Below, piece by piece: positions 40,746 to 64,000 of a stretch of 64,000 bases of DNA. The notes under the pieces are model-generated. The model did not search any database and was not told where the DNA came from. It worked only from the letters and a program-made list of their open reading frames with translations. How positions within the stretch are numbered: the stretch's first letter is position 1; every line of letters starts with the position of its first letter. The stretch comes from Candidatus Bathyarchaeota archaeon. GTDB lineage: Archaea > Thermoproteota > Bathyarchaeia > Bathyarchaeales > Bathycorpusculaceae. The stretch spans positions 2,208,001-2,272,000 of the forward strand of contig OY970176.1 of assembly GCA_963707955.1 (NCBI GenBank), read 5' to 3'. A program made the position numbers and the translations under genes.

Positions 40746-40779
40746 AGAATAAAACTTTCGATCACCATCGTTTCAGCTT

Positions 40780-47492: not shown

Positions 47493-47604
47493 ACTTTCGC
47501 CCGATGTCTTTGTCATTGGCTTACGTCTGTACTGATATCCCGAACCATTTCTCATAAGCATAGAAAACTTGGATGACTGCGATTGTCTTGGCTTTGTTGA
47601 AGAG

Positions 47605-48258: not shown

Positions 48259-48448
48259 TTACCAGATCCGTTCCTACCAATAATGCAACTTTGCGATGGG
48301 TCTAAAATAGATAGCGCATCCTAAATCTAGATGAATGATCAACATCGTAACAGCCGGGTTTGCGACCATCATCGTATAGCGCCAATTTGATTTGGTAAAA
48401 AGTAATAAAGGGATATAAAGGCAAATCTGAAAATGACCCTGAGGCGGC

Positions 48449-49534: not shown

Positions 49535-49765
49535 CCGCGCTAGAGAACTATTCCTCAAACCTAAGGAAACTTTCGCCTCTTCAAGAGTCTTTTGCCGGGT
49601 TGAGGACGACTAGCTGAATTCCTATCGCCAATGGTTTGTAGCGCGCGCTGGTCGTACGCTATTTTTCTTCGTGCGCGCAGTTTTTGATTCAATACTTTTC
49701 GATAGGGAACCGACTAAATCAATGTTTGAGTTTGATATTCAAAAAAGGTCCAAGAACAGCGCGCA

Positions 49766-50173
49766 TTACCTTAGGAATCTGAAGATTTTCTTATACCAAG
49801 GCGTCATTCTATCTTGGATGATTTCACAGAGTTGATTTGCAAGAATCTGCGGGTTGTTGAAGACATCTTCATTGCGGCGTCGGAGCACCTTTATGCCCCG
49901 CCGCGCTAGGTTTGAGTCTCTTTGCCTGTCGTATCTTCTCCGGTCATCATGTATGCTACCGTCAATTTCTAAGCCTAATCGCAGTGTTGGACAGTAAAAG
50001 TCAAGGATGTACCCATATGCCACGAACTGTCGGTGGAAGATATGATTTGGAAAATTAGGCATCACTTGACCTTTTATGATTTCCCACATGCGCGCCTCTG
50101 CTGGTTTCGGATTGTGTCGCATTTCATAGGCTTTTTCGAACTTGAAAGGCGCACTTCTTCGACGGCGATACAT
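49766..50173 (-). CDS. DUF559/Vsr-like endonuclease domain protein
   Basis: MR.NP..AE..MW, F.RQ...GYILDFYC, EIDG..H, D..RD..L...G..VLR. Confidence 0.85.
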   Translation of the reverse strand: MYRRRRSAPFKFEKAYEMRHNPKPAEARMWEIIKGQVMPNFPNHIFHRQFVAYGYILDFYCPTLRLGLEIDGSIHDDRRRYDRQRDSNLARRGIKVLRRRNEDVFNNPQILANQLCEIIQDRMTPWYKKIFRFLR

Positions 50174-50288
50174 ACCAACCAGGCTACTATTTAATCTCTG
50201 CTAGCGCGATAAGGATTATGAAAACCCTGTAAAGATTGAAACTCAATTGAAAACCACGCAAGTTGCCTTTTTTGTTTGGGTTTGAGCT

Positions 50289-50305
50289 GGGATAAAACTT
50301 TACCC
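50289..50305 (+). repeat. Quasi-palindromic site, copy A
   Basis: GGGATAAAACTTTACCC, preceded by GT-rich arm TTTGGGTTTGAG. Confidence 0.7.
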
Positions 50306-50399
50306 TTTTTCTCTCTCCTGCTAACTCTCTCGCTCACTCTCTCTAAAAAAACAAACAAATAAAAAACACACACACGCAGACAACAAACAAAAACACACA

Positions 50400-51360
50400 G
50401 AAGTCAGAGACAAAAACGGGCAGACTGAACGTTATCCGCATTTTGAGAAGGAAATAGGCGAAGCTGTCCTGAAGAGCGGAAGTTACGTTTCCGTTGACGC
50501 CCTAATTGACCTTGCACTCTGGAACATAGACACCTACATTATGACTAGGAAAAACAGAGTTGTAGCAGTTTTGAAGAACCTTGAAGATGACTCTCACGTT
50601 AAAACTAGGCTCTGTCAATATGAGGCTCTCAGCAACGGTAAAGGAATTGCTATAGCTAAACAGTTTTTAATCTCCAAGATTGAAGGTCAAAACTTCGTTT
50701 TTAAGAAATATGGTCTGAAACGTCTCAATGTTGATGCTAGGCATCAAATCGGTAATATTCAATTTGAAAGTCTAGAATCAGCTAGGAAAAAGCTTGTCTT
50801 AATTGAGAGCCATAATGCTAAGCTGTATTTCAACCAGATTTTCAACTTGTTTCCTGAAAAGATTAGACCTGAAAAGAGGACAGGCTATGCGGCGTAAGAT
50901 GGCTTGAACAACGTCTTTAATTTTGCGTATTATGTTTTGAAGTGCAGAGTTCATAAGACATTGTTGAAAGCTAAGCTTGAACCATACCTAGGATTCCTTC
51001 ACTCTGTTCAAGTTGGAAAGCCTAGTCTAGTATGCGACTTTCAAGAACTTTACCGCTACTTGATAGATGACTACCTGATAGAACGGTGTCAGAAATTGCG
51101 TAAGAAGGATTTTGTGCTTGTTACAGATTTTATGATGCGTCTCAAAATGGGAAAGAGGATTCACCTATGTGAATTTGAAACTAATGATTTAGCTGAAGGT
51201 TTGAATTTGCTTTTTGAACGGCATAGTTGAGATTCCAAGAATCAGGCATGGCAGTAGGCAGACTCTTGACACGTTGATTAATGAAGAGGCTTACTTGTTT
51301 GCAAAGTTTCTGAGACATGAACGGGAAACATGGGCTCCAAGAATAGCGAGCCTAGCCTGA
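50400..51360 (+). pseudogene. cas1: Solo Cas1 endonuclease; 5'-truncated, in-frame TAA (50895-50897), frameshift near 51220
   Basis: EIGEAVLKSGS, R.CQY, IES, NN.FNFAY, LEPYLGFLHS, SLVCDFQELYR; no cas2 or array nearby. Confidence 0.85.
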
Positions 51361-51514
51361 TGGAAATAAGTAGTGATATCCCGATGTGGGACTTGGCGTG
51401 CGCTAATTTGTCAGAGTCCTCTGATCTGCGCTATTCTGTAAAGTCTGCTTGCTGGGAGTAAGAATACAAAGAGTTTTATCCTCATATCTTCAACTAAGTT
51501 GGCGGGATTGATAT

Positions 51515-52174
51515 TTGGAAAAACTTCAAACAGTAAGGCCTGAACGTACTGAAGAATTCAGGAAAAGATACCATGTGCTTCTTAACATCTCTGACGAGAA
51601 AATCAATGATATACTGAAACTGGTTGATTACGGACGACTTCTGCCTGATATCTGGAAAGATAAGCGAGAGGAGGAATTCAACCGGAAGATAGCTAAGATC
51701 TGTCAATTTGATGACCAAAAAGCAAGTTTGGTCATGTCATCGATAATTGGCATTTTGCGTAATGTGAAGAAAAAAGAGTTTGTTTTGAAAAGAGAATCAG
51801 ACCTGCTGAAATTGAAGTTTAACAAAACTGAGATTGAAAGATACGGAAAATTAGTGAACACATTGAGGAAAAAAGGGGGTCACGATGAAGTCAGAGAAGT
51901 CGATCAATGGCAATCTCTGACTGCGGAAGTCTTGCCATCTTTGGCTTCTATTGAATGCTCGTTTGACATACGGTGCGGAATCAAGAAAGACCAAGTATCG
52001 ACGTATATCCCTATTGTATTGTTAAAACTCAGAGCGACGAATGAAGGAGGGAAATCCTCAGAGTTTGTATTCCAAACTGACATTGGCACCCTAAGACGTA
52101 TAACTCGCGTTTTGACCGAAACATATAGAAACTCCAGTGTACTTAGGAAATATACACTCAAACGTGAGGACTGA
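51515..52174 (+). CDS. Helical protein with C-terminal COMM-domain-like region
   Basis: LPSLASIECSFDIR...YIPIVLLKLR......EFVFQTD...LRRI...L follows the COMM beta-beta-beta-alpha pattern; by eye only. Confidence 0.5.
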   Translation: MEKLQTVRPERTEEFRKRYHVLLNISDEKINDILKLVDYGRLLPDIWKDKREEEFNRKIAKICQFDDQKASLVMSSIIGILRNVKKKEFVLKRESDLLKLKFNKTEIERYGKLVNTLRKKGGHDEVREVDQWQSLTAEVLPSLASIECSFDIRCGIKKDQVSTYIPIVLLKLRATNEGGKSSEFVFQTDIGTLRRITRVLTETYRNSSVLRKYTLKRED

Positions 52175-52182
52175 AACTGACA

Positions 52183-52656
52183 ATGCGTCTCAGTCAACGT
52201 GTAGTACTTGAAGAACCGCAACCTGTCGCAGAGCATCAGAGATGTTTTCTAAGTGGAGATAGATACATCATGGATGCAGATCTCTTGGATAATTCCAAGC
52301 GTCGCGCGAGACTAAGACGCGTGCGTGAAGTATGGAAGCCAAATCATTGGTTCCCTGATGAAAGAATATACTTGGTGCATTCAGTCGCTCCAAACTTCTA
52401 TCGACGTGGCGATACGACATGGTCTATTGTTTTAGATGAAGAAAGCGAGACTGACTTAACTGAAACAATTCAAAAGAAGCTGAGAATCAGAAAGACAGAG
52501 GCAGCAGCAATAAAGGATAAACTTTACGAGGAAATTGACCAAATAGCTCAGGCTCGGAACGTTGAACGGTTTTCCTCAAACGAAAAAGACCAGCTAGTAT
52601 TAGCAATAATCAAGACCGCTGACAGTTTGTTGAAGAAGACACTTGATACAAAGTAG
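52183..52656 (+). CDS. Hypothetical protein (alternative start ATG 52270)
   Basis: 157-aa ORF between two co-oriented genes, gaps of 8 and 14 nt. Confidence 0.55.
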   Translation: MRLSQRVVLEEPQPVAEHQRCFLSGDRYIMDADLLDNSKRRARLRRVREVWKPNHWFPDERIYLVHSVAPNFYRRGDTTWSIVLDEESETDLTETIQKKLRIRKTEAAAIKDKLYEEIDQIAQARNVERFSSNEKDQLVLAIIKTADSLLKKTLDTK

Positions 52657-52670
52657 TCGGAGGCTGGCAC

Positions 52671-53753
52671 TTGTCATCCTCGGAAGACAAGCAGTCATCC
52701 TTTGCCTATCTTCTCTTGTCATTCCTCGAAGGAAAATTGTTAGAGAAGAATATTGAGATTCCCAAATCTTCTCGTGACATTCTTAATGTAGCAGTGGATG
52801 AGGCTGTCAACCAATATGTCACTATGCATGGCAAAGATATGACGATTGAACCTTTGTCACTTTTTGAGACGGTTTTCATGCTAGGTTTGGAATTCCGCCG
52901 TAAAAATCCTCCAATCATTCTTGTTCGCACCTATCAAGTTGGTTTTGAATCAAAAAAGAAGTCTCCTTATTCAATTGTAGTAGTGCAACCACGTGTTCCT
53001 TCTCAGGATCAGTTTAGAGAAAAGGTTACCAATAATGGAAAACTTTGTATCATTAAAGAAGAAGCGGCTGAAGACATAATGCAGCAACTTTCAGAGATTG
53101 CTGAGAAGCTTGAAGAAAGAGTTGATTTTGTCTGTTTTCCTGAACTATCATTCTTTGATAAGAAAGAAACCTACGATGTTTTGAGCAAAATTGGAAAGGA
53201 AAAAGATTGTTTCATAATAGCAGGATCTTTTCACGATGAAAAGACAGAATCTAATATCTCTGTGATTTTTTCACCCCAAGGAAACTGGTTCAATCAGAGC
53301 AAAATCTTCAGATCCAAAAACGAAGGTATCAATGAGAAACCAATAGAATACTTGAACGAGTTTGATTTCCTTGAAGGAAGATTTTGTGTGTTGATTTGTA
53401 TCGATTCAGAAAGAGAGGATATCAGACAGATACTCAAAGAGAGACTGAAAGACCGCAAGTGCCCTGTGCTAGTCTTCAACCCATCACACACCGAACACCC
53501 AAAAAGGGCGACGGAGCTGCTAGCAAACAATCTCATGGTGCTGATTTCTGCGGCAATAGTTTTCTGTAATACTAACCAGAAAGGGGGTTCAACGGTACTT
53601 GTTCCTTTTGTTGAACTCAAAGATAGAAAATTCCGACTCTTCGAACTACCTCCTTCCGCCAAGACTGAGATTGGAAACGCCCAAGTTGATGTTAACCTCC
53701 TTATGGAAAATAGATTGTCAAAACAAAATGGTGTGGTTTCCATGACGAGATAA
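52671..53753 (+). CDS. Carbon-nitrogen hydrolase (nitrilase superfamily) with ~100-aa N-terminal extension
   Basis: FPELS (Glu), QSKIF (Lys), LICID (Cys) triad; IIAGS; N...GGS; GGAGG RBS. Confidence 0.8.
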   Translation: MSSSEDKQSSFAYLLLSFLEGKLLEKNIEIPKSSRDILNVAVDEAVNQYVTMHGKDMTIEPLSLFETVFMLGLEFRRKNPPIILVRTYQVGFESKKKSPYSIVVVQPRVPSQDQFREKVTNNGKLCIIKEEAAEDIMQQLSEIAEKLEERVDFVCFPELSFFDKKETYDVLSKIGKEKDCFIIAGSFHDEKTESNISVIFSPQGNWFNQSKIFRSKNEGINEKPIEYLNEFDFLEGRFCVLICIDSEREDIRQILKERLKDRKCPVLVFNPSHTEHPKRATELLANNLMVLISAAIVFCNTNQKGGSTVLVPFVELKDRKFRLFELPPSAKTEIGNAQVDVNLLMENRLSKQNGVVSMTR

Positions 53754-53906
53754 GACTGCGAGCCGTCAAGGAAAGGATTTGCGCCCGCGCAAAATCACAG
53801 ACTGAACAGTGTTATGTGTTTTTCGTTTTATGCGTGTGTGTGTTTTTTATTTGTTTGTTTTTTTAGAGAGAGAGTGAGTGAGAGAGTTAGTAGGAGAGAG
53901 AGAAAA

Positions 53907-53923
53907 GGACAAAACTTTACCCC
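53907..53923 (+). repeat. Quasi-palindromic site, copy B
   Basis: GGACAAAACTTTACCCC, followed by CA-rich arm. Confidence 0.7.
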
Positions 53924-54199
53924 CCCACACACACAACAACTTTGGTTCGTGGCTTTTTGGGGTGCCTCGCTGGTCGCTCGGCACCTTTTTCTAAGCAGCA
54001 GGATGACCAGCTATCCTCTTTGAGGCAAAAAACAGACGCTGGTACGCTGATAAAAGAGGTGGGGCATGAGGCACAGCAAATAACCCTACCCACGCTCAAT
54101 AGGAGAATAATATACCCGTTAGAGGCTCTAAAGGGTATATTTCGAGACGTTTTCAGCTCAATTTGATGGCGAATAGAGAATACTCCAAAGCTACTGGAA

Positions 54200-54371
54200 A
54201 ATCATTAAGAAAACAGCGGTTTACGACAAGGCTCTTGGCAAATTTACAGACGAAGACTCACGCAAAGAAGGTTTCGAAGACATAGCCGAATGCAAGCAGT
54301 TCTGGAAGGAAAACATTGACGCGTGGAATCCCGACAGAATCGTCTGGATTCATGAACATGAATTAGTCTAA
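54200..54371 (+). pseudogene. ASCH-domain protein remnant
   Basis: LGKFTDEDSRKEGF.......FWKE....WNPDRIVWIHE is a typical ASCH C-terminus; 5' part scrambled. Confidence 0.6.
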
Positions 54372-54397
54372 GCACACGCCGATTACACTTCATACGC

Positions 54398-55249
54398 TTA
54401 TTCCGTGACCTCGGGTGTATCCGCGAGCACTTTCGAGAAGGAGTTTGCTATCGAATTGACTACCTCTTGGTTAGTGGAAACAATCCCTGCTTCCCAAGAA
54501 ACACCAGCCGATGAATCTGCAAAGAAATTCATTGAAGATATAATAGCTATTGCACGGTCAACTACGATTAATTTCGCGTGTACTTTGGCATCATAAAATA
54601 ATGAAATGCCTTCCTGTTTGAGTTTTGAGTGATAATCCTGCCTTTTCTTAAGATATTCAGGATGCTTGTCCTCTGGAGGGCGAGTAATAATTTGAACGTT
54701 GATTCCGTTTTTACTCGCTTCTATCAACGTATTGCTGAGGTCACAATCTTGAATGTAAGGATTTGCTGTGAGAACATCGAATTTGGCGTGAGAGATTAAT
54801 TCTTTTGAAAAATCATCTAGATGTCTTCGCTCGAGGAAGAAATGTTCATGCTCAATGGAAAAATCAAGATTCCTAATTTCTTTCCATTGCGCTATCCATT
54901 TGACGAGTTCGGTCCTCGGATTATACAACTCCGAATAAATCTGAAAACGTTCGTCAGATATGTAATACTTGCTCTCAGCGTTAGTGTTGCTCTCGATTTT
55001 ATGAATGTCTTCTGAGGAGATAAGTTCGAAAAGTGCCCTGTTCAATGATTTCTTGCCCAAACCAGTTACTTCTTGGATTTCTCTCCAAGTCAAGGGTCTG
55101 CCATTTTGGACAATCGCTCTGATGACTAAACCTTGCCATGACCGAGGTCTCCACTTTGGTCTGGCTGTCGCTTCGCTCTCCAAAGTTGGCTTCTCGGATT
55201 GTTTAATCATTCTGCGGAGCAAGAATAACTCCTGTAACTCTATCATCAT
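54398..55249 (-). CDS. wHTH fused to a phospholipase D-family (HKD) nuclease domain
   Basis: LTWREIQEVTGL....LNRAL.EL wHTH; NPYI; HAKLIVVD....IISSMNF. Confidence 0.8.
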   Translation of the reverse strand: MMIELQELFLLRRMIKQSEKPTLESEATARPKWRPRSWQGLVIRAIVQNGRPLTWREIQEVTGLGKKSLNRALFELISSEDIHKIESNTNAESKYYISDERFQIYSELYNPRTELVKWIAQWKEIRNLDFSIEHEHFFLERRHLDDFSKELISHAKFDVLTANPYIQDCDLSNTLIEASKNGINVQIITRPPEDKHPEYLKKRQDYHSKLKQEGISLFYDAKVHAKLIVVDRAIAIISSMNFFADSSAGVSWEAGIVSTNQEVVNSIANSFSKVLADTPEVTE

Positions 55250-55425
55250 ACGATTTCTTATAACAATAATGCAGTCATAATCTATAGCACAACTAACGGA
55301 TGCATCGCTTCAAAAATACCTTGGCACCTCTATCATTTTCTTGATCATAAAATGCCCTTCTTTTTGGTATGCCTTGAACATAAGTAAGTAGGCTCTCAAT
55401 GAGAATTAGCAATGTGGTGGTTGTT

Positions 55426-55442
55426 GGGGTAAAGTTTTACCC
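55426..55442 (-). repeat. Quasi-palindromic site, copy C (inverted)
   Basis: GGGGTAAAGTTTTACCC within hairpin-capable GGTTGTT...CCAAACC. Confidence 0.7.
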
Positions 55443-55689
55443 AAACCAAACCTGACGACGATGTGCTACGTGGAAACAGAATGGCTTCTGAAAGGCAGTA
55501 TACACGATTCAGAGCATAGTGGTTGATCTCTGCAAAAGAGGCTATTACGGGAAATCAGATCATAATAGGGTAGGGATATAGGTAGTATCGGAATCGAGTA
55601 TACGGCCCCCTTTGCGCAGAAGGATTGCGAGAGATGTGTTTGTTCTTTCTGTTTCATAATAGAACAGATTGTTTTGATTGTTATCGAGA

Positions 55690-56775
55690 TCATGAATCGG
55701 CAAGTTTCGTCTCAAGCAGTTCCAGTGTCTTGCTTATGCCGAATGAGCCCTTAATGGGGACTATTCGCTTTTCTTTGGAGAGTGCGCCCCTCAGCTTTGC
55801 TTGAGGAACCAATCTTCGGATTGCTTTTGTAGGCGCTGTAGAGATAACAAAAAGCTGGAGAGACCTATTTGCCACCAGAGACTCATTGATTATTGTATTA
55901 ATCTTCTCGTGCCTGAATGCAAAGCCGACGATGATGCAAATATCCGTCTGCGTGAGTTTATTTTTGAATCTGGCAAACATATCGCCGTACGGATATGGGT
56001 TTTCAGTGTTCGGCTTCCTGCCAAAAAGAACAAACTCGTTGTTTCGGTAAAGTATGGTGTTTGGCGGAACTGGAAACTGTACGGTTATCACCTCAATCTT
56101 TTCTGTCTGTTTGTTCCATACCCAGTTCAGGGAACCATGAAGCTTCGTCAGTGTATATTTTTCGCTGGATGTGGGGGTCACCTGTGGCTCCAAAGTATGT
56201 TCTAGGACCGCATACCTCAGAGCATGCCCAGACTGATCGCAATAATCCTCTATCACGTGATCATAGTTGGTCGTGAATATCTCGAATTCAGGTTTGTTCG
56301 CCATATACGTTTTCATCAAGGAAAAGAAGCGACCGTAATAGTCTTTGATATCATCGAAAAACCCTTGTTTTCGCTGATAATTTGAGAAAGTAGCGGCAGT
56401 TATTTTTTCTTCAAGAGCTCTTGCTAGTCTAACTATCTTATGCCATTCAATTGTACCTTGAAGAGGGTAAGGATGACTATCTTTTCCGAAATCTACAGAC
56501 TCTTTGTACCGTTCAAAGAAATTGTGCATGGAAGAGGCTGTCGAGAGCCGATCTATCTCAAACAGCGAATCGAGAATCTCAACAATATGTTCAATGTCTC
56601 TCACACCGTGCAATTGGCGGAGGGACGACAAGAAACTTCTCTCTTCATCCTTCAAAGTTTTTGAGAAATTTTCCATAAAAGCCTTCGTAGCAGGACAACC
56701 AAACTTTGCAGAAACCCCTGCTCCCAAGAATATTATGATGCTTTTCGAGTGTCCATTATCGACCCTAAGTGACAT
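55690..56775 (-). CDS. SIR2-like (SIR2_2) protein, putative NAD+-cleaving defence effector
   Basis: FLGAGVS..FG.P, FTTNYD, KLHGSLNW, IVGFAF. Confidence 0.85.
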   Translation of the reverse strand: MSLRVDNGHSKSIIIFLGAGVSAKFGCPATKAFMENFSKTLKDEERSFLSSLRQLHGVRDIEHIVEILDSLFEIDRLSTASSMHNFFERYKESVDFGKDSHPYPLQGTIEWHKIVRLARALEEKITAATFSNYQRKQGFFDDIKDYYGRFFSLMKTYMANKPEFEIFTTNYDHVIEDYCDQSGHALRYAVLEHTLEPQVTPTSSEKYTLTKLHGSLNWVWNKQTEKIEVITVQFPVPPNTILYRNNEFVLFGRKPNTENPYPYGDMFARFKNKLTQTDICIIVGFAFRHEKINTIINESLVANRSLQLFVISTAPTKAIRRLVPQAKLRGALSKEKRIVPIKGSFGISKTLELLETKLADS

Positions 56776-56848
56776 GTGACTAGATTGCTACGGAGACAAG
56801 AAAACGCTTTCGGTTTGTGTTTCTTGGCAGAAATAGTATCTATTTGCA

Positions 56849-58489
56849 TCAGCTCTCCTGAAAGAAGAAAAGATTATCATTCCGAATAGAATCTCTCAAT
56901 TTAACCAGCAGATTAAAGTGCTCGTGAAGCTTCGTTTCTTCTGCTTCTTTTTCTACTGTTTCTATATCTTTTTTCATTGGGAATCCTTCCATTCCTATAT
57001 CCACAGGATATTCTTTCCTTCGGAATTTTGCTATTTTTTGAACACAAATATTGAAGAATCTGATTTCCGACAATAAACGCATGGCAAGATCGAGCACTTT
57101 GTTGTCATAGACTGACTTTATCCAACCCTCAGTTTCGTCTGATTTCGACAATAGTCTCAATTCAATGAAACCAGACGGAGATGACGCAAACTGAAAATGT
57201 CTGATTTCATTTATCTTGGCACTTGTAATGAATAATTCTTTGGTAACGTCGTTGAAAAACAGTCGAAAATCGTGGCAAGGGAAAAACAGTTTATCCCTGC
57301 TCAGTGATGCGACTAAACCCAGTTTGATTCTTTTAGGTATTGACTTTCCGTAATACTCACTTTCAAACACTGAGTTGTTCTGATACAATTTCCTGAAATG
57401 GGAAGGCAGAAACAAAGATTTTTCTAATTCCACACATTTCTTGAAAAGCTTTCTCAAGCTTTTTTCAGCTTTCTGCAGATCTATTTCATCGAAATTATCA
57501 AGAGGAAATGTTATACTGAAATCAAAGTTCTTTGGCAATTTGATTCTTGTCAAGCTAGGGGCCTTTCCGCAAATCTGTTTTAGGGTAGAAAACTCGGATA
57601 TGTTCTTCGTTTTGTATTCGCCTTGCAGCATGAAATCGTCTAACCTGAATTTCTCGATTTTTGGTATGAACGAAAAAACGCCCGAGCTACCTGAGGGTCG
57701 ACCCCAATCTTGCAGTTCATCGGCCAAAATGAGGACAGACAATATTTTCTCTTTTGATGCTTTGATTTTCCTTGTGCCGCGGGAGCTATGAAAAGCAATG
57801 GCTCTGATTACGTCCTCATATTTCTTAATTAGATTCGCATCTTGTTTTAGATAAGATGTGAACTCTAATGCACTCAATATGCCATGGTCAAATTCCTTAG
57901 TTTTGTATTCCTGCAGGATCTCTGGCGGCAAAGATGAGAATTTCTCGATATCAAATCGCAATTTCTTTTCCGCATTCAATAATGCTTCCGAAGCTATATT
58001 GTAACAGTCTTTTATCGCATTTATAGAGAATCGGATGCTCTGGTCTATGTCAGCCAAAGGATATGCGACATCATGGAAAAGGGAAGCCAGGAGCAACTTA
58101 TCCAGATCTTGCGGAGACAAATTGAAAGGGGATTTTTGGCCAATAGCTCTGCCCAATAATGCAACGCGTATCGTATGATTTAGATGATCACGGTAAAATT
58201 TCCTTGCTAACCCTCGAGTTGATATTGTTATTTGCTCCAAACTGGTTAACGCATTACCTAATCGTTTCGACCTCATTCTTCCTTTCGAACTGCAGTCTGC
58301 ACCTAAGATCTTGAGAATCAAATTACTCATTAAGGAGGCTGCTTTCGTTTTCTGCATCTCATAATCAGTTATTTCATTCCAATCTTCTATTTCAGAGCAG
58401 ATGTCTTGGGGCCATTTCCCTAGCTCTATTATCTTTTTGTCGAAAAGCAAACTGACTACGAACGGGTTTTGCTTCGATATGTCTTCCAT
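56849..58489 (-). CDS. Large HD-superfamily phosphohydrolase
   Basis: YRDH..H..RV, LFHDVAYP, DHGILSA, IAFH, LILADELQDWGR. Confidence 0.8.
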   Translation of the reverse strand: MEDISKQNPFVVSLLFDKKIIELGKWPQDICSEIEDWNEITDYEMQKTKAASLMSNLILKILGADCSSKGRMRSKRLGNALTSLEQITISTRGLARKFYRDHLNHTIRVALLGRAIGQKSPFNLSPQDLDKLLLASLFHDVAYPLADIDQSIRFSINAIKDCYNIASEALLNAEKKLRFDIEKFSSLPPEILQEYKTKEFDHGILSALEFTSYLKQDANLIKKYEDVIRAIAFHSSRGTRKIKASKEKILSVLILADELQDWGRPSGSSGVFSFIPKIEKFRLDDFMLQGEYKTKNISEFSTLKQICGKAPSLTRIKLPKNFDFSITFPLDNFDEIDLQKAEKSLRKLFKKCVELEKSLFLPSHFRKLYQNNSVFESEYYGKSIPKRIKLGLVASLSRDKLFFPCHDFRLFFNDVTKELFITSAKINEIRHFQFASSPSGFIELRLLSKSDETEGWIKSVYDNKVLDLAMRLLSEIRFFNICVQKIAKFRRKEYPVDIGMEGFPMKKDIETVEKEAEETKLHEHFNLLVKLRDSIRNDNLFFFQES

Positions 58490-58515
58490 TGAGTTGTACT
58501 ATAGATTCACTAGTG

Positions 58516-58525
58516 TTATATATAA
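58516..58525. promoter_or_regulatory. Palindromic TATA box, candidate bidirectional promoter
   Basis: TTATATATAA centred in the 65-bp gap between divergent ATGs at 58489 (-) and 58555 (+). Confidence 0.55.
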
Positions 58526-58554
58526 TGATTCGAAAGCCTATATTCAGAGGCAGG

Positions 58555-58923
58555 ATGAAATCTATGGGACATCGAAGGGAAGTTTTCAGACCCAGATCTA
58601 CAAAGACGATAAAGAATAGAATTCAACAATCACTCAAAGAGGGGAGGTTTGCAGAAGCTGCCAACATTGCTGCTTTCAGTTATTCATCCAGGCCTATTGC
58701 AGATGATTTCGCCATTTCAATGTTGGCCACAGCCGAAGCTATCACCCTGGGCCGACAAATAAACTGGAAAAAGATTACTGAAGATCTAGTTTCTGCAGGT
58801 ATATCTATCGCTGAACGGAAACTCAATTCGAGAGTCAACAGAAAACGCCTCTCAATAGTCTTTGAATCCATAGCCCGTTCGGTTGAACGCGCTAGAAAAG
58901 AGGAGAGTGCGCGAGATGAGTGA
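58555..58923 (+). CDS. Hypothetical small helical protein (alternative start ATG 58564, MGHRR...)
   Basis: First gene of three overlapping ORFs ending in the QueC-like gene. Confidence 0.6.
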   Translation: MKSMGHRREVFRPRSTKTIKNRIQQSLKEGRFAEAANIAAFSYSSRPIADDFAISMLATAEAITLGRQINWKKITEDLVSAGISIAERKLNSRVNRKRLSIVFESIARSVERARKEESARDE

Positions 58924-59266
58924 TCTTGACATTCTCCTTCTGAAAAGCGTAGCTAAAGAAATCATCGAGCATGTTTGGAAAACGGAATTCTACAACGATG
59001 CTGAGAATTATATTTTATACAAAGATTCTAGACGGAAAAAAAACCCTAGGTCGGAGGATGAGATAAGACAGATCGATTCCGAATTGAGTAGATTAAAGAA
59101 CGATCTAATTGACGAAATAGTTGAAGAGTTCAATGCGAACGGGATAAACTCCATGGAGGATATTTCAAAATCCTATGGAAAAGTCCGGGAAATATGTTAC
59201 AAGAAATTTGAAGAGCATAGGAGGCGACTTTGGGATGTCGTTAAACCTGGATTCCCTTCTAAGTGA
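58916..59266 (+). CDS. Hypothetical charged helical protein
   Basis: ATGAGTGA overlap with the upstream stop; AGGAG RBS. Confidence 0.62.
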   Translation: MSDLDILLLKSVAKEIIEHVWKTEFYNDAENYILYKDSRRKKNPRSEDEIRQIDSELSRLKNDLIDEIVEEFNANGINSMEDISKSYGKVREICYKKFEEHRRRLWDVVKPGFPSK

Positions 59267-60533
59267 ACATCTGGCAGAAACATCCCCCTTAAGACAATTT
59301 TTCTGGCGAAAAGAAAGGAAAGCAGACGGAATTAGTTATCCTATACCTCTCAAAGAACAATATGTAGATTTCTTGAGACTTGTTTTGGGGCTTCATATAA
59401 TAGAAATCAGACATCTTGAATACGTCAAAGAACTGAGAATGGAAACAAGCTATCCGGATGATTTTCTTTCTATAGTCAATGATTGCGAGTCACTTTTCTA
59501 TTTGTTGGCAAATATGAAGGTAAACCTCAAGATTATTCCAAGCAGTTCCAGACATAGCTGGAGAAAAATCGATGAAGGTACTTTATATAAAGATATCGTT
59601 CCATTTTCCGGTGGATTAGACAGTCTATGTGGCGCTCTTAGTTCATCAAAACATTCAAGAATCATTCTGTCTCACTGCAAGACGAATCTGGTCATCTTTG
59701 GCAAGGTTTTGAAACTTTCAGACATGAATTCTTTCAAAAGGTCCGTTTTATATTGTATGGATGCTACGTCCAAAACACCGATAGCTGGAGTATCCGATAC
59801 GAGGGGATTACTTTTCCTTTCATTCGCTTATGCAATTGCTGCTTCTTTGGACCTAAGATACGTGACATTTTGCGAAAATGGCTCGCAGATGCTTGACGTG
59901 ATGCTAGGTTCATTAGTCTATCCGAATAAACCCGCCACGAAGAATACAAACCCAGTCTATATTGACAAAATTGAGAGCATTTTCAGCAACTTCTATGATA
60001 AAACCTTCAAAATCGAATGCCCTTTCAAGGACATGACAAAGGCTGAAATGCTTCTTCCATTAAAAAATGAAATAAGATTCGAAGATACTTACTCATGTTT
60101 CAGCCCAAGGGGCAGGGCTGCAATGTGCGGGGAATGCTATAACTGCTTCGTAAGAAGACTATCCTTATTGGCAATAAACGTCGCAGAGAAAAATAATGTG
60201 TATGAAGTAAATCCTTTCACGGTTACGCATGAAATACATCACGAGGGAAGCGCTCCGTCAACGAACATCCTATTTCATTTCTTAAGGTTCTATAGCCAAA
60301 TACTAATGAGGAATTCCTCTTCGATGAATGAGATAGAAGTAAGCTCAAGAGGCTATTTTAGAGACCCCTTGGATTTGGCTACTCGATTCGCCGAAGATGT
60401 ATTTCTAGGTGTCAATGGACTATTAGGCGCGATTGGTGAAAACCAGTTGAACGCACTAGGAAAAAAAGCAAGAGAGTTGCTTGATCAGCTTGACAAGAAA
60501 ACCCTGAGAGAAAGAAAAGAGGAATTGACCTGA
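59235..60533 (+). CDS. QueC-family PP-loop ATPase (QatC/Cap9-like, extended)
   Basis: FSGGLDS PP-loop, CENG, PF..MTKAEM, TYSC and CGECYNCFVRR zinc site; ~430 aa with N- and C-terminal extensions. Confidence 0.82.
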   Translation: MSLNLDSLLSEHLAETSPLRQFFWRKERKADGISYPIPLKEQYVDFLRLVLGLHIIEIRHLEYVKELRMETSYPDDFLSIVNDCESLFYLLANMKVNLKIIPSSSRHSWRKIDEGTLYKDIVPFSGGLDSLCGALSSSKHSRIILSHCKTNLVIFGKVLKLSDMNSFKRSVLYCMDATSKTPIAGVSDTRGLLFLSFAYAIAASLDLRYVTFCENGSQMLDVMLGSLVYPNKPATKNTNPVYIDKIESIFSNFYDKTFKIECPFKDMTKAEMLLPLKNEIRFEDTYSCFSPRGRAAMCGECYNCFVRRLSLLAINVAEKNNVYEVNPFTVTHEIHHEGSAPSTNILFHFLRFYSQILMRNSSSMNEIEVSSRGYFRDPLDLATRFAEDVFLGVNGLLGAIGENQLNALGKKARELLDQLDKKTLRERKEELT

Positions 60534-60808
60534 TTGGCACCTAGGGGATAATACGCCAAACGAACGTGGCGCACTATCACTTAGAATGTCCTTTCAAGAG
60601 TTCTCGCGCGCGCTATTTGCAATCTTTCGGTTCTAGGAGGTATTTGGGAATTGGTATGGCAGATGCTCTAGATAAAATACTTCAATATGTGGACGTAACT
60701 GTGAAAGAAATCTGTCTTCGTTCATTTCTGGATCTGGATTCACCAGAGCTTTGATTAGCTGTTCTTTATGAAAGTCCTTTAGATTTGGATCTCTCTTGTA
60801 GCGTGCGC

Positions 60809-61741
60809 TCAGATAATCACTGGTTTATTTTTTTGCTTATTTGTTCTTTGTTCCAGTTTTATTAGGACCAGACTTAGTAGTGCCATCGTCGTTGTTCCAA
60901 TGACTATCGGAATCCAATTGGCGGATACAGCCTCAAGATTCGCCCATATGCCCATTCGATAAAGAACAAGCCAAATACCAAGGCAGACAAGACCTGCAAC
61001 GAAAAGGGGTTTTTTCCAGATGTTGCGGTGCTTGATCATCGTTTGGGGAATTATTTTTAGAGGCTCTTTTCTATCTCTCCGGTCTAGTTCGCCCGACCAA
61101 TAAACTAGTCCGAAAAATGCGAACCCTGCAACAAACGGATAGTAAAATGACCATGGTTTGGCGAAGACCTCTAGATTCGATCCATTTGGCACTAGCAACC
61201 AGATTATTGAAAGGAATATTGCTCCTAAAAGGAAACCGCGATCTAATAGGTGACTGTTAAGTGCTGGTCCGTATATTCTCCGCCACGGTGTAGGCTGGTC
61301 ACCGGGCAAGCGAAGATCTGGATCTGCTTGTTCTATGATGCCTCTAGGGTCTTCTTGAAAGAAGTAGACTTTTCCATTTTCAATAGGAAGCTGTGGATTT
61401 CCATCAGCATCAATTGTGCCGCGTTTAACCCATCTTGTTAGGGGATAGAACCATTCACAGCCTCTATCTTTTGCGGTGGTAAACGAGTCCTGCAAGGCGT
61501 GCATAAAAATACCGAGTGAAAAGAAAGGGCTCAAAAGAAACCCTGCCGCCATCACAAACACATTATGAAACCTTGCCCTGTGAGGTTGTTCATCTCGATA
61601 TTTCTTTGCTCGAACAAACCAATACTCTCTGTCCAAATCGGGGACAAAGGCTCCGAGACAAACGAGTAGCGCGGCGTCAGCACGACCAAAGAAAATTAGC
61701 CCTACAGCAAAAGCAAATACAACATGCGTTGTTAACTCCAA
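60809..61741 (-). CDS. Membrane-bound metal-dependent hydrolase (YdjM-like)
   Basis: TH, PDLD, HRARFH, H.LQD motifs plus TM helices. Confidence 0.75.
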   Translation of the reverse strand: MELTTHVVFAFAVGLIFFGRADAALLVCLGAFVPDLDREYWFVRAKKYRDEQPHRARFHNVFVMAAGFLLSPFFSLGIFMHALQDSFTTAKDRGCEWFYPLTRWVKRGTIDADGNPQLPIENGKVYFFQEDPRGIIEQADPDLRLPGDQPTPWRRIYGPALNSHLLDRGFLLGAIFLSIIWLLVPNGSNLEVFAKPWSFYYPFVAGFAFFGLVYWSGELDRRDRKEPLKIIPQTMIKHRNIWKKPLFVAGLVCLGIWLVLYRMGIWANLEAVSANWIPIVIGTTTMALLSLVLIKLEQRTNKQKNKPVII

Positions 61742-61910
61742 CTTGCATCAAGCTAATTATTACATCATCCCCAATTTAACTGCTTTCTCAGCTGTCTCAG
61801 GATGTGTGAATATCGTTTCAACGATGTCTACCATCGCCGTAGAATCAGCTATGTTCTTTATTCTCTCTGATCCATTGCCCTTGAATGAAGCTAGTTGTTA
61901 TCCCAGAAGA

Positions 61911-62474
61911 TTATCCGTGGCGCTCGGCTTTTAATTTTTTGGAGAATAAACCTTCCAGGCAGTAGACTGTAAGCTTCTCTTTTTCTGGGCATTTTGCTCC
62001 AAGGTCGCACTTTGGGCAAAGCTGGGAAACATCTTTCACGTTGAGGGTGCCCATTCGTTCGTGCAGGGCATAGAGCAGCTTAAGGTATTTTCCCTCAGCT
62101 ATTCTCGGAACATCATACCGCCTATCTAGCCCATACCACTCATAGAGCCGCCTATCACCCTTGGAAGAGTTACAGCTCTTACAAACCCAGACCGCATTGT
62201 CAGGCAAATCTGGCCCTCCTCTTGACTTCGGCAAAATGTGATCAAGTGTAAGATCTTTCTTGCCACCACAATAAATGCACTCTCCAGTCTTCTCACGCTC
62301 CTTCACGTACTCCCGAATAGAAGTCGACCACAGGATCTCCCCAGAAGCAAGCTTCTTGAACCTGTCCATCACAAAACCGTACTGCCTCTTCCCAGCACCG
62401 GCAGACTCTGAAATGATCTTGGCATACTGCCAGAAAATCAAGTCTCCGACAGTTTTCACGGCACTAGGAGGCAA
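61911..62474 (-). CDS. HNH endonuclease
   Basis: CIYCG, LTLDHILPKSRGG, NAV.VCKSCNSSKG. Confidence 0.88.
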   Translation of the reverse strand: MPPSAVKTVGDLIFWQYAKIISESAGAGKRQYGFVMDRFKKLASGEILWSTSIREYVKEREKTGECIYCGGKKDLTLDHILPKSRGGPDLPDNAVWVCKSCNSSKGDRRLYEWYGLDRRYDVPRIAEGKYLKLLYALHERMGTLNVKDVSQLCPKCDLGAKCPEKEKLTVYCLEGLFSKKLKAERHG

Positions 62475-62561
62475 TAATACACCCAGAGTAACTAGGGTCG
62501 ACAGGCCTTTTATGCTTTAAACTAGCGCGCGCTAACTTTTCCGACACATCCAATGCTGGTT

Positions 62562-62578
62562 GGATAAAACTTTACACC
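62562..62578 (+). repeat. Quasi-palindromic site, copy D
   Basis: GGATAAAACTTTACACC, followed by CTCAAACCCAAAC and a low-complexity arm to ~62693. Confidence 0.65.
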
Positions 62579-62720
62579 TCAAACCCAAACCTAAACCCAA
62601 ACGTTTACTGACTAAACTTCTAACTTACCTATACTCTTACTCTCTTCACACATAATACAAGACATAATATACACATAAAACACGCGCGCGCTACGTACAT
62701 ACGGACCGCATAAATCGGCG

Positions 62721-63668
62721 TTACAATCGATCTTCAGGAGGAGTCGGATTTGGGGATGCCCCGTTTAAATGAGGTAGGAGCGCCCTGTAAATTGTGGAAT
62801 TGATAGGGGTCTCCACCCCCTTCTCTCGACCCAATCGAACAATGGTGCCGATCAAAGCGTCAAGTTCCAGCCGATGACCCGCCATGAGGTCAACCTGCAT
62901 AGACGGCCTAGCCCACGTCGCATACCCCTCTAACATCTTCATAGTGTCATCAACGAATCTTTCAGGTATCGTGACTCCAGACGCCTTTGCCACAGCAACG
63001 TTCTCCTCCATCGTATCGCGTACCAATTGCCAAGAATCAGAGCAATCTCAGACAGGCCCTGCTGGGAGCCTAATCAATGAAAAGACCCCGTTGACCGCTG
63101 AGTTGGAGAGCATCTTCTCCCACAATGCCTGTCGGATATTTGGGTGAAGCTCGGCGGCGATATTAGCTTCTTTGAGAACCTTGGAGATCTCTTCTGTGCG
63201 CCTCGTCACGCCTCCTGCGAGTTCCCCGAATATTAGCCTCGTCGAACCTCCGTGTATGATAACGCCTGGTTTCTCGACTCTGGCGTTCACCCAGGAGACT
63301 CCTCCGAGGACATGCTCTAATCCAACTATATTCCCTATGTGGTCAGCGGCCTCTACGCCGTTCTGAACTGGGATTATGACGGTTCCTTCACTGATAAGTG
63401 GTGACATCTGCTGCGCGGCGGAGTCGAGGTCGTAGGTCTTCACGCAGAACATGATTAGGTCAACGGGGTCAACTTCGGCGGGCCTATCAGTTGCTTTCAC
63501 GGATAATTTGATGTCTCCGAGTGAGTTGGATTTGACGAATAGGCCATTAGCCCTCAGGGCATCCAGGGTTTGCCCCCTAGCGATTAGGGTTACATCGTTT
63601 CCAGCATTTGCGAGAAGCGCTCCGAAGAAGTCGCCTTCACCTCCAATCCCGACGACAGCTATTCTCAT
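62721..63668 (-). pseudogene. panE: 2-dehydropantoate 2-reductase with in-frame TGA (63048-63050)
   Basis: VKTYD, QNG, LWEK, PSMQ.D...G..LELD; both ORFs share one frame; nucleotide-binding loop altered (GIGGEGD). Confidence 0.82.
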
Positions 63669-63774
63669 AATTTACAAAATAGTTGAAATAGCATTTATAT
63701 TATTCTTTGTATGTACGATCAGTAATTATTAGCGAGTAATTGAGCTGAAGCCCGAAAATGCTCAGGTATGTGTC

Positions 63775-63792
63775 GGGATTAAATTTTACCCC
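63775..63792 (+). repeat. Quasi-palindromic site, copy E
   Basis: GGGATTAAATTTTACCCC, followed by CCAAACCCAACCC. Confidence 0.6.
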
Positions 63793-64000
63793 CCAAACCC
63801 AACCCAAAAAACACACAAAACCCATGTGAGAAATGCAGAACTGTTATAACAAGAAAAAATAGGGATAGATAGTATGCTTCGAGTAGCGGGTTAGCTTGTT
63901 GTGATCGACCACTCGCATGGAATTTTTCCTGTTTTCGCCGTGGCTTTCCATCCCAACAGTTTTGCTGTGTCCACGACTGATGCAGCACAGAATTCGCACA

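Follow-up and report, generated by a model that had tools for sequence, protein, structure and literature searches.

The known tagging systems that the locus reported here resembles are bacterial. In the QatABCD system, the N-terminal tail of QatB occupies the active site of QatC, the glycine motif of QatB (MGTS) is essential, and a G2D change severely reduces or abolishes defence; the small-molecule substrate of QatC is unsettled in the parts of these papers considered here (PMC13279940, PMC13376578, PMC13639016). In one of them, LC-MS/MS picked up the QatB peptide GTSKAY in modified form (PMC13639016). In type IV CBASS, which uses the QueC-family enzyme Cap9, the sections drawn on here report that the Gly2 amine of CdnD carries a deazaguanine and that its N-terminal peptide is Gly-rich (10.1101/2025.04.06.647259). 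More generally, PP-loop enzymes of the QueC superfamily serve many pathways, and the archaea-restricted QueC clusters 7, 8 and 10 are left unanalysed in the portion of PMC13329287 used here.

The window, that is, the whole stretch of 64,000 nucleotides of archaeal DNA that was analysed, contains a gene cassette that looks like an undescribed relative of the bacterial antiviral systems that work by tagging the first glycine of a protein. Its features are as follows.

55690-56775, minus strand: SIR2_2 protein gene, a neighbour outside the four-gene unit
56849-58489, minus strand: HD hydrolase gene, member of the conserved four-gene unit
58490-58563, no strand: divergent intergenic region of 74 bp with a TATA-like palindrome, TTATATATAA, at 58516-58525, read directly from the sequence
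58564-58923, plus strand: ORF1, member of the conserved four-gene unit
58916-59266, plus strand: ORF2, member of the conserved four-gene unit
59235-60533, plus strand: QatC-like enzyme gene, member of the conserved four-gene unit
56820-60609, no strand: conserved extent of the transferable four-gene cassette, from the blastn match to locus L003 and a contig of sediment run X5

All five ORFs of the preliminary description were found where it had placed them, SIR2 and HD on the minus strand and three overlapping genes on the plus strand. The last 8 nt of ORF1 are also the first of ORF2 (ORF2 ATG 58916, ORF1 stop 58923), and the last 32 nt of ORF2 are the first of the enzyme gene (enzyme ATG 59235, ORF2 stop 59266). 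The suggestion that the five genes form one unit held for the HD gene, ORF1, ORF2 and the QueC-like gene and failed for SIR2, both in gene conservation and in the boundaries of DNA homology. Conservation was counted by hmmsearch over 46 related loci from archaeal MAGs and sediment, with denominators for each gene limited to the loci with enough flank; some of the 46 are near-duplicates (L010/L011, L022-24, L038/39 and L028/L046), and so the independent loci are fewer. ORF2 is present in 36 of 36 loci and ORF1 in 34 of 34, the two small ORFs always lying 5' of the enzyme gene. The HD gene is an equally constant partner, divergent on the opposite strand in all 32 loci that extend 1.1 kb or more upstream, and every complete locus has all four genes together. 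Clusters number 52 in the HD family and 55 in that of the enzyme, and among the matches listed for the two families, the longest contig is equal in size for many entries.

The boundaries of the cassette are visible in DNA. When locus L003 is compared with the whole window by blastn, one match alone results, pairing L003 5582-9376 with 56820-60609 of the window (3795 nt, 91.8% identical), and the similarity ends about 30 bp beyond the HD stop. In the independent sediment run X5, a 5710-nt contig covers 56853-60606 with unlike sequence past both ends, diverging within a few bases of the HD stop (the loose end is at 56853). The cassette, an HD gene divergent from an ORF1-ORF2-QatC-like operon, is thus transferred as a unit.

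These boundaries bear on the proposal that SIR2, lying downstream of HD, depletes NAD as the effector of the QueC-like module in a five-gene system. Just 73 bp, holding little but a short T run, separate the HD stop from the SIR2 gene, which has the same orientation; the SIR2 product is of a defence type (PADLOC Aga_SIR2, E=8e-23; NCBIfam SIR2_antiphage, E=2e-11), and effector swaps are common among defence systems. However, the 92%-identical copy in L003 is alike only across 56820-60609, which places SIR2 outside the cassette, and the depth over the SIR2 bins is essentially none in X5 (0 to 1.8), though relatives cover both flanks. Near 55551-55605, contigs of X2, X3 and X5 part from the window, and this sets SIR2 apart as a separate insert of roughly 1.2 kb. 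No homologue of this SIR2 turned up in the 46 loci, 18 of them with 3.6 kb or more of sequence on the upstream side of the QueC-like gene. The 25 commonest of 122 Pfam families in 127 proteins neighbouring the related loci do not include SIR2, although it may occur singly among the rest. A SIR2 effector as a family trait is largely refuted by the 0/46 count and the L003 and X5 boundaries, and we regard the five-gene reading as highly improbable; the SIR2 gene is a separate single-gene insert and no part of the cassette.

The enzyme is a QueC-family PP-loop ATPase of 432 aa that has a zinc site and is extended at both its N- and its C-terminus in the manner of QatC. As had been noted, the PP-loop (SGGLDS) and the zinc-site cysteines (C288, C298, C301 and C304) are intact, and they are invariant in 27 family members, as are S125, G127, D129 and S130. 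That the protein is not a housekeeping QueC was borne out by profile scores and by a tree, both of which make it a relative of QatC. It matches PADLOC QatC with E=4.9e-18 and NCBIfam QatC with 69 bits, under the 280-bit cut-off, and scores 23.9 bits against QueC TIGR00364, which has a cut-off of 150 bits. The family profile finds QatC 9vlk in the PDB with E=5.8e-29 (profile positions 62-324), Cap9 with E=1e-4 and QueC 3bl5 with E=2.7e-3. In a tree rooted on the host's own QueC, the enzyme's clade has 70 members and weak support (0.57) for its monophyly, and the QatC core clade (11 members) falls outside it; in an exhaustive search, scores grade without a clear gap into a wider QatC-like superfamily. 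The host's canonical queC (207 bits) adjoins queD at about 0.90 Mb, approximately 1.3 Mb from the cassette, and the host also has TGT genes, so 7-carboxy-7-deazaguanine should be available. The pocket motif that binds this molecule is Y-x-D, whereas the enzyme has T-x-N and QatC has T-x-T; therefore, a different acid could be the substrate. We propose that the enzyme is a ligase that joins an activated carboxylate to Gly2 of ORF1.

ORF1 is a basic protein of 119 aa (pI 10.6; median of homologues 10.2) with the N-terminus Met-Gly-His. A Met-Gly start from ATG 58564 had been offered as one option, and this is most likely the true start, because the ATG at 58555 is CTG in L003 and because 35 of 38 independent database gene calls of homologues begin M/L-G-[H/S]; the window's own protein, called from 58555, is one of the three exceptions. 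In 30 of 30 aligned homologues, with identity down to about 19%, the start is Met-Gly-[His/Ser], and Gly2 is one of only three invariant columns. An AF2 model places a disordered tail (residues 2-9, pLDDT under 50) ahead of a bundle of five helices, and one ORF1 clade has Gly-rich linkers that recall the CdnD peptide. An invariant Gly2 and a disordered tail are marks of the N-terminal glycine substrates QatB and CdnD. By these N-terminal features and gene order only, ORF1 is proposed as a candidate substrate that the QatC-like enzyme would modify at the Gly2 amine; comparison of ORF1 with QatB and CdnD found no resemblance in sequence or fold.

The 65-bp gap that had been described between the HD ATG (58489) and ATG 58555 is present with the palindrome inside it, but with ORF1 starting at 58564 the intergenic region becomes 74 bp. 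Divergent spacers are 22-98 bp in 21 of the 22 related loci examined and 221 bp in the other; the short ones have AT-rich TATA-like elements and purine-rich stretches just 5' of the ORF1 start. We regard 58490-58563 as a putative promoter region.

ORF2 (116 aa) is acidic in most homologues (median pI 5.1), with conserved residues R45, E49 and G76, and has no match in Pfam, PADLOC, NCBIfam or Atlas. We propose that it works with ORF1 or the enzyme as an adaptor or partner. Another reading starts from the opposite charges of the two small, overlapping genes in a mobile cassette, with integrases near several loci: they might form a toxin-antitoxin or addiction module belonging to a mobile element, with the enzyme and HD as passengers or regulators and the conserved glycine serving otherwise, for example in start-codon context or another N-terminal modification. 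We judge this quite improbable: the four genes occur together in every complete locus and the catalytic residues of the enzyme are kept, neither small protein matches a toxin or antitoxin family, and an M-G-[H/S/T] start beside a QueC-family enzyme recurs in QatB and CdnD, known substrates in the cited accounts.

The HD protein (546 aa) has an N-terminal HD domain (Pfam HD, E=6e-7; present in 23 of 23 homologues) and, at the C-terminus, an alpha/beta domain (about 270 aa) that returned no match. Residues H102, H105, H139-D140, H202, H234 and D257 and a DE.QDWGRP block are invariant. The best fold matches of its AF2 model (pLDDT 85) are PPX/GppA, cyclic-nucleotide PDEs and YqeK, with Z scores of 10.1 or less that are generic for a largely helical domain. 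The protein is predicted to be a metal-dependent phosphohydrolase, likely a hydrolytic output or processing enzyme. A distant variant, G311, has no HD gene, which implies that HD is not indispensable to the core; its counterpart of ORF1 starts M-G-T. An ASCH-domain gene, overlooked in the preliminary description, is the recurring fifth gene, present in 18 of 37 related loci and absent from the window.

The cassette sits in an archaeal low-GC defence island (GC 0.38-0.43 versus 0.48-0.51 in flanking bins), which also holds a split Cas1, a Vsr-like gene, a PLD nuclease, the SIR2 gene, an HNH gene and a pPIWI-associated nuclease domain. As had been stated, no KAP NTPase, TatD, CD-NTase, TGT or QueD/E is adjacent (nine genes scanned with Pfam and PADLOC, 52671-62474), nor is one found by Pfam among ten ORFs at 44557-52656; likewise, PADLOC, NCBIfam and Pfam returned no complete named system. 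The commonest Pfam families among the 127 neighbours of related loci, all in archaeal hosts, are N6 DNA methylase (5), phage integrase (5), ResIII (3) and HsdM_N (3), and HsdR, an S subunit and Cas1 also occur. The distribution is patchy: two of 401 genomes sampled in the phylum have the cassette, including the window's own, and none of 25 other genomes of the host's family has it. In a sediment metatranscriptome, eight short contigs fall on HD, ORF1 and the enzyme gene with 85-99% likeness and none on SIR2, a weak hint of expression, as DNA carry-over in the library is possible.

A rival reading is an accessory metabolic or regulatory module with no antiviral role, in which the enzyme produces or alters a small molecule or nucleotide for HD to process, and carrier or regulator functions fall to the small proteins. 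Such a module would agree with the many pathways served by the PP-loop superfamily and the archaea-restricted clusters left aside in the portion of PMC13329287 used here, with the role of HD enzymes in nucleotide metabolism and with a pocket unlike those of both QueC and QatC. Yet the cassette is patchy and occurs in differing contexts beside restriction-modification genes, integrases and Cas1, the closest characterised relative of its enzyme is a defence enzyme, and a disordered tail with an invariant Gly2 would be difficult to account for in a carrier or regulator and is exactly what QatB and CdnD defence requires in the published accounts cited. We consider the metabolic explanation unlikely.

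Compared with QatABCD, the enzyme is homologous to QatC over the PP-loop core as well as a portion of the N-terminal extension, keeps the R...F, ENG, TK and CGxCxxC blocks, and is encoded directly after a small Met-Gly-[small/polar] partner with a flexible N-terminal tail and helical body, a parallel to QatB with its MGTS motif and its tail in QatC's active site in the accounts cited. In contrast, the cassette lacks QatA (KAP NTPase) and QatD (TatD) and has a constant HD gene instead; it has two small proteins where those accounts give a single larger QatB (ten helices, at least 225 residues); T-x-N replaces the invariant T-x-T; and the enzyme forms a separate clade in archaeal hosts. Type IV CBASS, in the cited sections, likewise pairs a QueC-family enzyme with a protein, CdnD, whose Gly2 on a Gly-rich flexible tail takes 7-carboxy-7-deazaguanine, and the ASCH gene could parallel the nucleobase-handling Cap10 (TGT-like reader) and Cap11 (OGG-like). 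However, the cassette has no CD-NTase, TGT or OGG genes, and Cap9 is described as minimal (about 185-190 aa) with a canonical Y-x-D pocket (PMC13329287). Housekeeping QueC shares the PP-loop SGGxDS and the four-cysteine zinc site, but its YPDC pocket is replaced in the enzyme, which is twice as long.

We infer the following chemistry and partner roles. By analogy with Cap9-CdnD and QatC-QatB, methionine aminopeptidase would expose Gly2 of ORF1. The QatC-like enzyme would adenylate a carboxylated small molecule, most likely 7-carboxy-7-deazaguanine from the host archaeosine pathway, though the T-x-N pocket may select another acid, and would ligate it to the Gly2 amine on the flexible tail. Acidic ORF2 may be an adaptor or partner of basic ORF1, and the HD protein would be the hydrolytic output or processing enzyme (a phosphodiesterase or nuclease) in place of QatD and QatA. 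In about half of the family, the ASCH (PUA-like) protein may read or remove the tag.

In conclusion, a four-gene mobile cassette with QatC-like tagging of Gly2 of ORF1, an HD output and an antiviral role is the explanation that we favour, and we hold it to be reasonably probable. The cassette is probably a new archaeal variant of QueC-family N-terminal protein modification and a defence system, and its association with defence genes makes antiviral defence its likely role in these archaea.

The five ORFs that the preliminary description placed between positions 55690 and 60533 are all present in the ORF listing of the window, and they are as follows.

Genes of the window locus
55690-56775, minus strand: SIR2_2-domain protein, 361 aa (Pfam E=2e-12; PADLOC Aga_SIR2 E=8e-23)
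56849-58489, minus strand: HD-domain protein, 546 aa (Pfam HD E=6e-7)
58564-58923, plus strand: ORF1
58916-59266, plus strand: ORF2
59235-60533, plus strand: QueC-family protein (the enzyme), 432 aa, the last of three overlapping plus strand ORFs (Pfam QueC E=4e-11)

ORF1 and ORF2 overlap by 8 nt and ORF2 and the enzyme gene by 32 nt, and the divergent spacer carries the palindrome TTATATATAA at 58516-58525. The G+C content is 0.38-0.43 over approximately 50000-61000 versus 0.48-0.51 in the bins 40000-43000 and 62000-64000. The host genome is a single 2.35-Mb contig, in which an archaeal SSU rRNA model is matched over its full length. The database version of the HD protein has 533 aa and starts at about 58450, which is residue 14 of the longest ORF, the one starting at 58489.

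Of the related loci that profile pattern scans yielded, two come from Bathyarchaeia MAGs and 44 are on metagenome contigs; their enzymes are 29-92% identical to the window enzyme. An HMM was made for each protein and all six frames were searched; the counts below are limited to loci with enough flanking sequence, and near-duplicates (L010/L011, L022-24, L038/39 and L028/L046) mean that there are fewer independent loci than counted.

Genes accompanying the enzyme gene at the related loci
ORF2, upstream of the enzyme gene, same strand: 36 of 36 testable loci
ORF1, upstream of the enzyme gene, same strand: 34 of 34 testable loci
HD gene, upstream of the enzyme gene, opposite strand: 32 of 32 testable loci
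ASCH-domain gene, directly downstream of the enzyme gene, convergent: 18 of 37 testable loci
The window's SIR2 gene, anywhere in the locus: 0 of 46 loci, and 0 of the 18 that reach at least 3.6 kb upstream

Both small ORFs and the HD gene, which had been proposed as partners of the enzyme, do accompany it at every testable locus; the SIR2 gene, proposed along with them, does not. The HD family comprises 52 database clusters, about as many as the enzyme family, and many entries in the two cluster lists agree in the size of their longest contig.

The same four genes are delimited by nucleotide comparisons. When L003, the locus with the 92%-identical cassette, is compared by blastn with the whole 64-kb window, there is one match, which pairs L003 5582-9376 with 56820-60609 of the window at 91.8% identity (3795 nt) and runs on for about 30 bp beyond the HD stop codon and 76 bp beyond the enzyme stop codon. 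A 5710-nt contig from X5, a sequencing run from another study, spans 56853-60606 and has unlike sequence outside both ends. The cassette ends were examined for terminal repeats and none was convincing. In a sample of 401 genomes of the phylum, the sole other hit is in genome G311, and none of the 25 other genomes of the window's family has one. A scan of viral contigs with the family profile gave 37 pattern matches, none of which was confirmed. Eight short contigs of a sediment metatranscriptome (X13) lie on the HD gene, ORF1 and the enzyme gene with 85-99% likeness; DNA carry-over is possible, and these contigs are a weak hint that a relative is expressed.

The SIR2 gene is a gene separate from this four-gene cassette. 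Besides its absence from the 46 related loci, the homology to L003 and X5 stops before the SIR2 gene. The bins over this gene have a depth of 0 to 1.8 in X5, in which relatives of the PLD region further to the left are present. Contigs of X5 and of two other sequencing runs (X2 and X3) diverge at about 55551-55605; this point, taken together with the end of cassette homology at 56820-56853, makes the SIR2 gene look like an insert of its own of about 1.2 kb. A five-gene system that includes SIR2, as the placement of this gene next to the HD gene on the same strand had suggested, is in our opinion highly improbable. The PADLOC match of the SIR2_2 protein, encoded in the insert region 55605-56820, is to Aga_SIR2 class II and covers nearly the full length of the protein; no Argonaute gene was found next to the SIR2 gene.

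The idea that the QueC-like protein stands apart from housekeeping QueC is borne out by the QueC equivalog model TIGR00364, which gives the enzyme 23.9 bits versus a cut-off of 150.3 bits, by matches to QatC in the PDB and by a separate clade. The PADLOC QatC model matches the enzyme at E=4.9e-18, and the NCBIfam QatC model NF041925 gives it 69.4 bits, below the 280-bit equivalog cut-off. A family profile made from 27 members finds the QatC chains 9vlk (E=5.8e-29) and 9zee (E=1.1e-21) in the PDB; the same profile finds Cap9 at E=1e-4 and Bacillus subtilis QueC at E=2.7e-3 only. The QatC alignment covers profile positions 56-330, beginning in the N-terminal extension and including the zinc site, and a C-terminal extension is present in the enzyme, yet it has no sequence alignment to QatC. 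The PP-loop residues S125, G127, D129 and S130, as well as C288, C298, C301 and C304, are invariant in the family alignment.

The pocket has a pattern of its own. At the two positions that are Tyr and Asp in QueC and Cap9, the window family has T-x-N (T-K/R-N, e.g., ATKNTNP and PTKNAHP), and this pattern occurs in 46 of the 55 sequences that fall under the 12 commonest motif variants among 76 family sequences. The corresponding motif is STRTTHP in 11 of 13 QatC sequences and GYPDCRP in the host QueC, and it is ATKNTNP in the window family. A canonical queC (207 bits; G000 900772-901458) adjoins queD at about 0.90 Mb in the host genome, and so, the window enzyme gene is an extra paralogue. The host has three TGT-family genes, with TGT sites at about 0.90 and 1.97 Mb, and together the queC-queD pair and the TGT genes imply that 7-carboxy-7-deazaguanine should be available in the cell.

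A word-indexed database search gave 68 clusters, of which the 55 at E<=2.4e-27 are taken as the family; named QatC proteins appear in this search only at E of about 1e-5. An exhaustive profile search gave 4823 representatives at E<=1e-3, 2861 at 1e-10 and 274 at 1e-30, and the scores slope into a large QatC-like superfamily with no sharp gap. For a FastTree phylogeny, 76 family, 69 second-tier and 13 QatC sequences were used, with the host's own QueC as the root. A clade of 70 sequences (support 0.57), family members without exception, is delimited by the 27 reference members and shares no sequence with the 11-member QatC core clade (support 1.0); of the sequences first labelled as family, six with lower scores are placed outside the family clade. 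Many members of the wider superfamily are 600-790 aa forms extended at the N- or C-terminus by 250-400 aa (e.g., P0109, P0142, P0176, P0192, P0197 and P0126-P0145). In ten of the longer enzyme relatives (605-788 aa), Pfam recognised the QueC domain alone and no domain in the extensions, which may be fused partners.

An alignment of 30 ORF1 homologues, down to about 19% identity, has three invariant columns, and Gly2 is one of them. Position 3 is His or Ser, or Thr in G311. Reading on from the upstream stop, one meets the first start codon, often TTG or GTG, exactly at the M-G in most loci, and a purine-rich stretch lies directly before the ORF1 start in related loci. The upstream ATG of the window at 58555 is CTG in L003. 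Among 38 third-party database gene calls for ORF1 homologues, 35 start with M/L-G-[H/S]; the other three comprise two calls that are extended at the 5' end and the call for the window's own protein, which begins at 58555 and gives 122 aa. Judging from these alignments, ORF1 probably starts at 58564 and not at the annotated 58555.

In the AF2 model of ORF1 (pLDDT 84), residues 2-9 fall below pLDDT 50 and a bundle of five helices comes after them, and one ORF1 clade has a Gly/Arg-rich linker after the M-G-S start. A complex prediction for the enzyme with ORF1, run without controls, gave scores of 0.08 and 0.03 versus a mark of 0.32, which speak neither for binding nor against it. ORF1 is strongly basic (median pI 10.2) and ORF2 is mostly acidic (median pI 5.1). 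A small basic and a small acidic protein encoded by overlapping genes could also be read as a toxin-antitoxin-like pair with the other genes as passengers; the enzyme gene and the HD gene accompany the pair at all testable loci, and we give this reading little chance. A match of DUF6471 to ORF1 (Pfam, 22 bits, below the cut-off) occurs in only two of the 30 homologues and was dropped as chance.

Neither small protein resembles anything in the libraries searched. ORF1 and ORF2 have no match in PADLOC and NCBIfam, both of which are assumed to contain QatB models. A Foldseek search of the PDB with the ORF1 model gave nothing at E<=0.001, with QatB not listed, and the ORF1 profile had chance-level matches only among PDB sequences (FEN-1 and uL15), with no QatB chain at E<=10. 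For ORF2 there was no match, and an Atlas search gave no usable hit.

The HD protein is well conserved. H102, H105, H139-D140, H202, H234, D257 and a DE.QDWGRP block are invariant in 23 aligned homologues, and Pfam HD matches all 23. The H...HD...H...H...D pattern presumably reflects a two-metal site of the phosphodiesterase or nuclease type. The model of the protein (pLDDT 85, pTM 0.86) has a general HD/PDE fold only: VIA-align gave PPX/GppA at Z 10.1, cyclic-nucleotide PDEs at Z of about 9 and YqeK, HD-GYP, PgpH and SAMHD1 at Z 6-7, and a Foldseek search gave nothing at E<=0.001. The C-terminal half of about 270 residues is without a match. HD-CE was considered for this part and set aside, as the Atlas leads (at most 0.80) to clusters partly labelled PF24391 were uninformative; Pfam HD-CE is found in three of the 23 homologues (best E=0.003), and a literature search for the term gave unrelated uses only.

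The ASCH gene encodes a protein of about 170 aa and is absent from the window. A profile of 15 sequences matches TTHA0113/1wk2 (E=4e-9), ASC-1 (E=2e-8) and EOLA1 (E=1e-3), and Pfam ASCH is above the cut-off in one of the five members scanned. The distant variant in G311 (locus L053, 7594-9893 and 11233-12453, both minus strand) consists of an M-G-T small protein, a second small protein, the enzyme and the ASCH protein, encoded on one strand with overlapping ends, and it has no HD gene. A nearby gene in G311 resembles an integrase/tyrosine recombinase by eye.

Several other genes surround the cassette in the window's island, which also has a DUF559/Vsr-like gene.

Island genes around the cassette
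46566-47492, plus strand: predicted pPIWI-associating nuclease domain protein (PF18165 E=4e-20)
50541-50897 and 50904-51230, plus strand: Cas1 split in two ORFs (Pfam Cas1 positions 64-180 and 188-270)
52671-53753, plus strand: nitrilase-like protein without an RT domain, similar to the nitrilase portion of DRT reverse-transcriptase-nitrilase proteins (PADLOC E=4e-7)
54398-55249, minus strand: DrmC-like nuclease of the PLD family (E=4e-14), extended at its N-terminus by about 140 aa
61911-62474, minus strand: stand-alone HNH protein, 187 aa (best models Cas9d E=3e-14 and IscB E=6e-12)

The ORFs that follow the pPIWI-associated nuclease gene, at 47605-48258 (minus) and 48449-49534 (plus), have no Pfam match. 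The split into two adjacent ORFs makes the Cas1 either broken or a solo Cas1; the first ~60 positions of the Cas1 profile are not matched. Cas1 genes or fragments also adjoin the HD gene in L022-L024 and L035. The commonest Pfam families among 127 neighbours of the related loci are N6 DNA methylase (5) and phage integrase (5), followed by ResIII (3) and HsdM_N (3); HsdR_N, a type I S subunit and a full-length Cas1 are also among them. At L003 four paralogous genes (163-280 aa, L003 90-5180) flank the cassette, and the tallies suggest that they are phage-integrase-family proteins (5 members) that also match PADLOC mad2 (7 members). The enzyme belongs to a protein family with a housekeeping branch, and one could regard the cassette as a metabolic or regulatory module outside defence; set beside such neighbours and the QatC-like features of the enzyme, we consider this rather unlikely.

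In type IV CBASS, CdnD loses Met1 and Cap9 then joins 7-carboxy-7-deazaguanine to the amine of the CdnD residue Gly2; the modified CdnD peptide that is quoted is Gly-rich (10.1101/2025.04.06.647259). In QatABCD, QatB has its N-terminal tail inside the QatC active site, the N-terminal residue of QatB is Gly2 by Edman degradation, and the MGTS motif is essential, with G2D severely reducing or abolishing defence (PMC13279940, PMC13376578). LC-MS/MS revealed a modified GTSKAY peptide of QatB. Attempts to reconstitute the activity of QatC did not succeed, and the identity of its first substrate counts as an open question (PMC13639016). In the QatC pocket, both positions that are Tyr and Asp in QueC and Cap9 are invariably Thr (PMC13279940, PMC13639016). 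Protein deazaguanylation was first described in 2025, for Cap9, and proposed in 2026 for QatC; type IV CBASS operons are also found in archaea (10.1101/2025.04.06.647259). A PF06508 survey covers QatC and Cap9 and leaves the archaea-restricted QueC clusters 7, 8 and 10 unanalysed (PMC13329287).

The cassette resembles QatABCD in two respects. The PP-loop core, zinc site and N-terminal extension of the enzyme align to QatC and a C-terminal extension is present, and ORF1 has the Met-Gly start, disordered tail and helical body that are hallmarks of QatB. However, the enzyme is below the NF041925 cut-off and outside the QatC clade, its pocket is T-x-N and not Thr-x-Thr, the PADLOC, NCBIfam, PDB profile and Foldseek searches found no QatB homologue for ORF1 or ORF2, and neither QatA (KAP NTPase) nor QatD (TatD nuclease) is among the window's neighbours or among the 25 commonest Pfam families of the 127 neighbours of related loci. 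Instead, the HD protein is the constant partner of the window family. Since the T-x-T dyad, the equivalog score and the three partner proteins QatA, QatB and QatD all speak against it, the cassette is not QatABCD. It is neither type IV CBASS nor canonical QueC: there is no CD-NTase or TGT beside it and Cap9 is matched weakly, and the enzyme lacks the YPDC pocket, falls below the TIGR00364 cut-off and exceeds the canonical length of about 220-250 aa. The expectation that the locus would match no named system therefore held for these three. In the literature covered (listings and text passages), no account was found that combines a QueC-like gene with an HD gene and a pair of small ones.

We infer the chemistry, the partner roles and a defence function of the cassette from these comparisons. 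The reading that we favour, with some reserve, is a four-gene, horizontally mobile module in which a QatC-like ligase would modify ORF1, a small protein dedicated to this role, at its exposed Gly2, in the manner of QatBC and Cap9-CdnD. The HD protein would replace QatA and QatD as the constant partner, and the ASCH protein would be an optional nucleobase-handling accessory. More tentatively, and perhaps somewhat short of an even chance, the family might be a third, archaeal lineage of immunity by nucleobase-protein (or other acyl-protein) conjugation. A T-x-N ligase would then cap Gly2 of ORF1, a small, basic and possibly nucleic-acid-binding protein, and the capped ORF1 would switch on, or be read by, a binuclear HD phosphodiesterase/nuclease as the output. 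The ASCH domain would act as a reader or eraser of the cap, and ORF1 and ORF2 together may be a QatB counterpart that is split in two.

The first substrate of QatC, its trigger and the way in which the tag stops phage are listed as open (PMC13279940, PMC13376578, PMC13639016), and the family offers a compact natural variant for these questions. It has a very small proposed substrate protein, a pocket unlike those of QatC and Cap9, and constant partners that differ from those of the QatC and Cap9 systems, namely the HD protein and, in many loci, the ASCH protein. Comparison with Qat and type IV CBASS could separate features of the chemistry from features of the output. With its members in Bathyarchaeia MAGs and in the window's genome, the family would also extend the principle of QueC-family protein modification to archaea.
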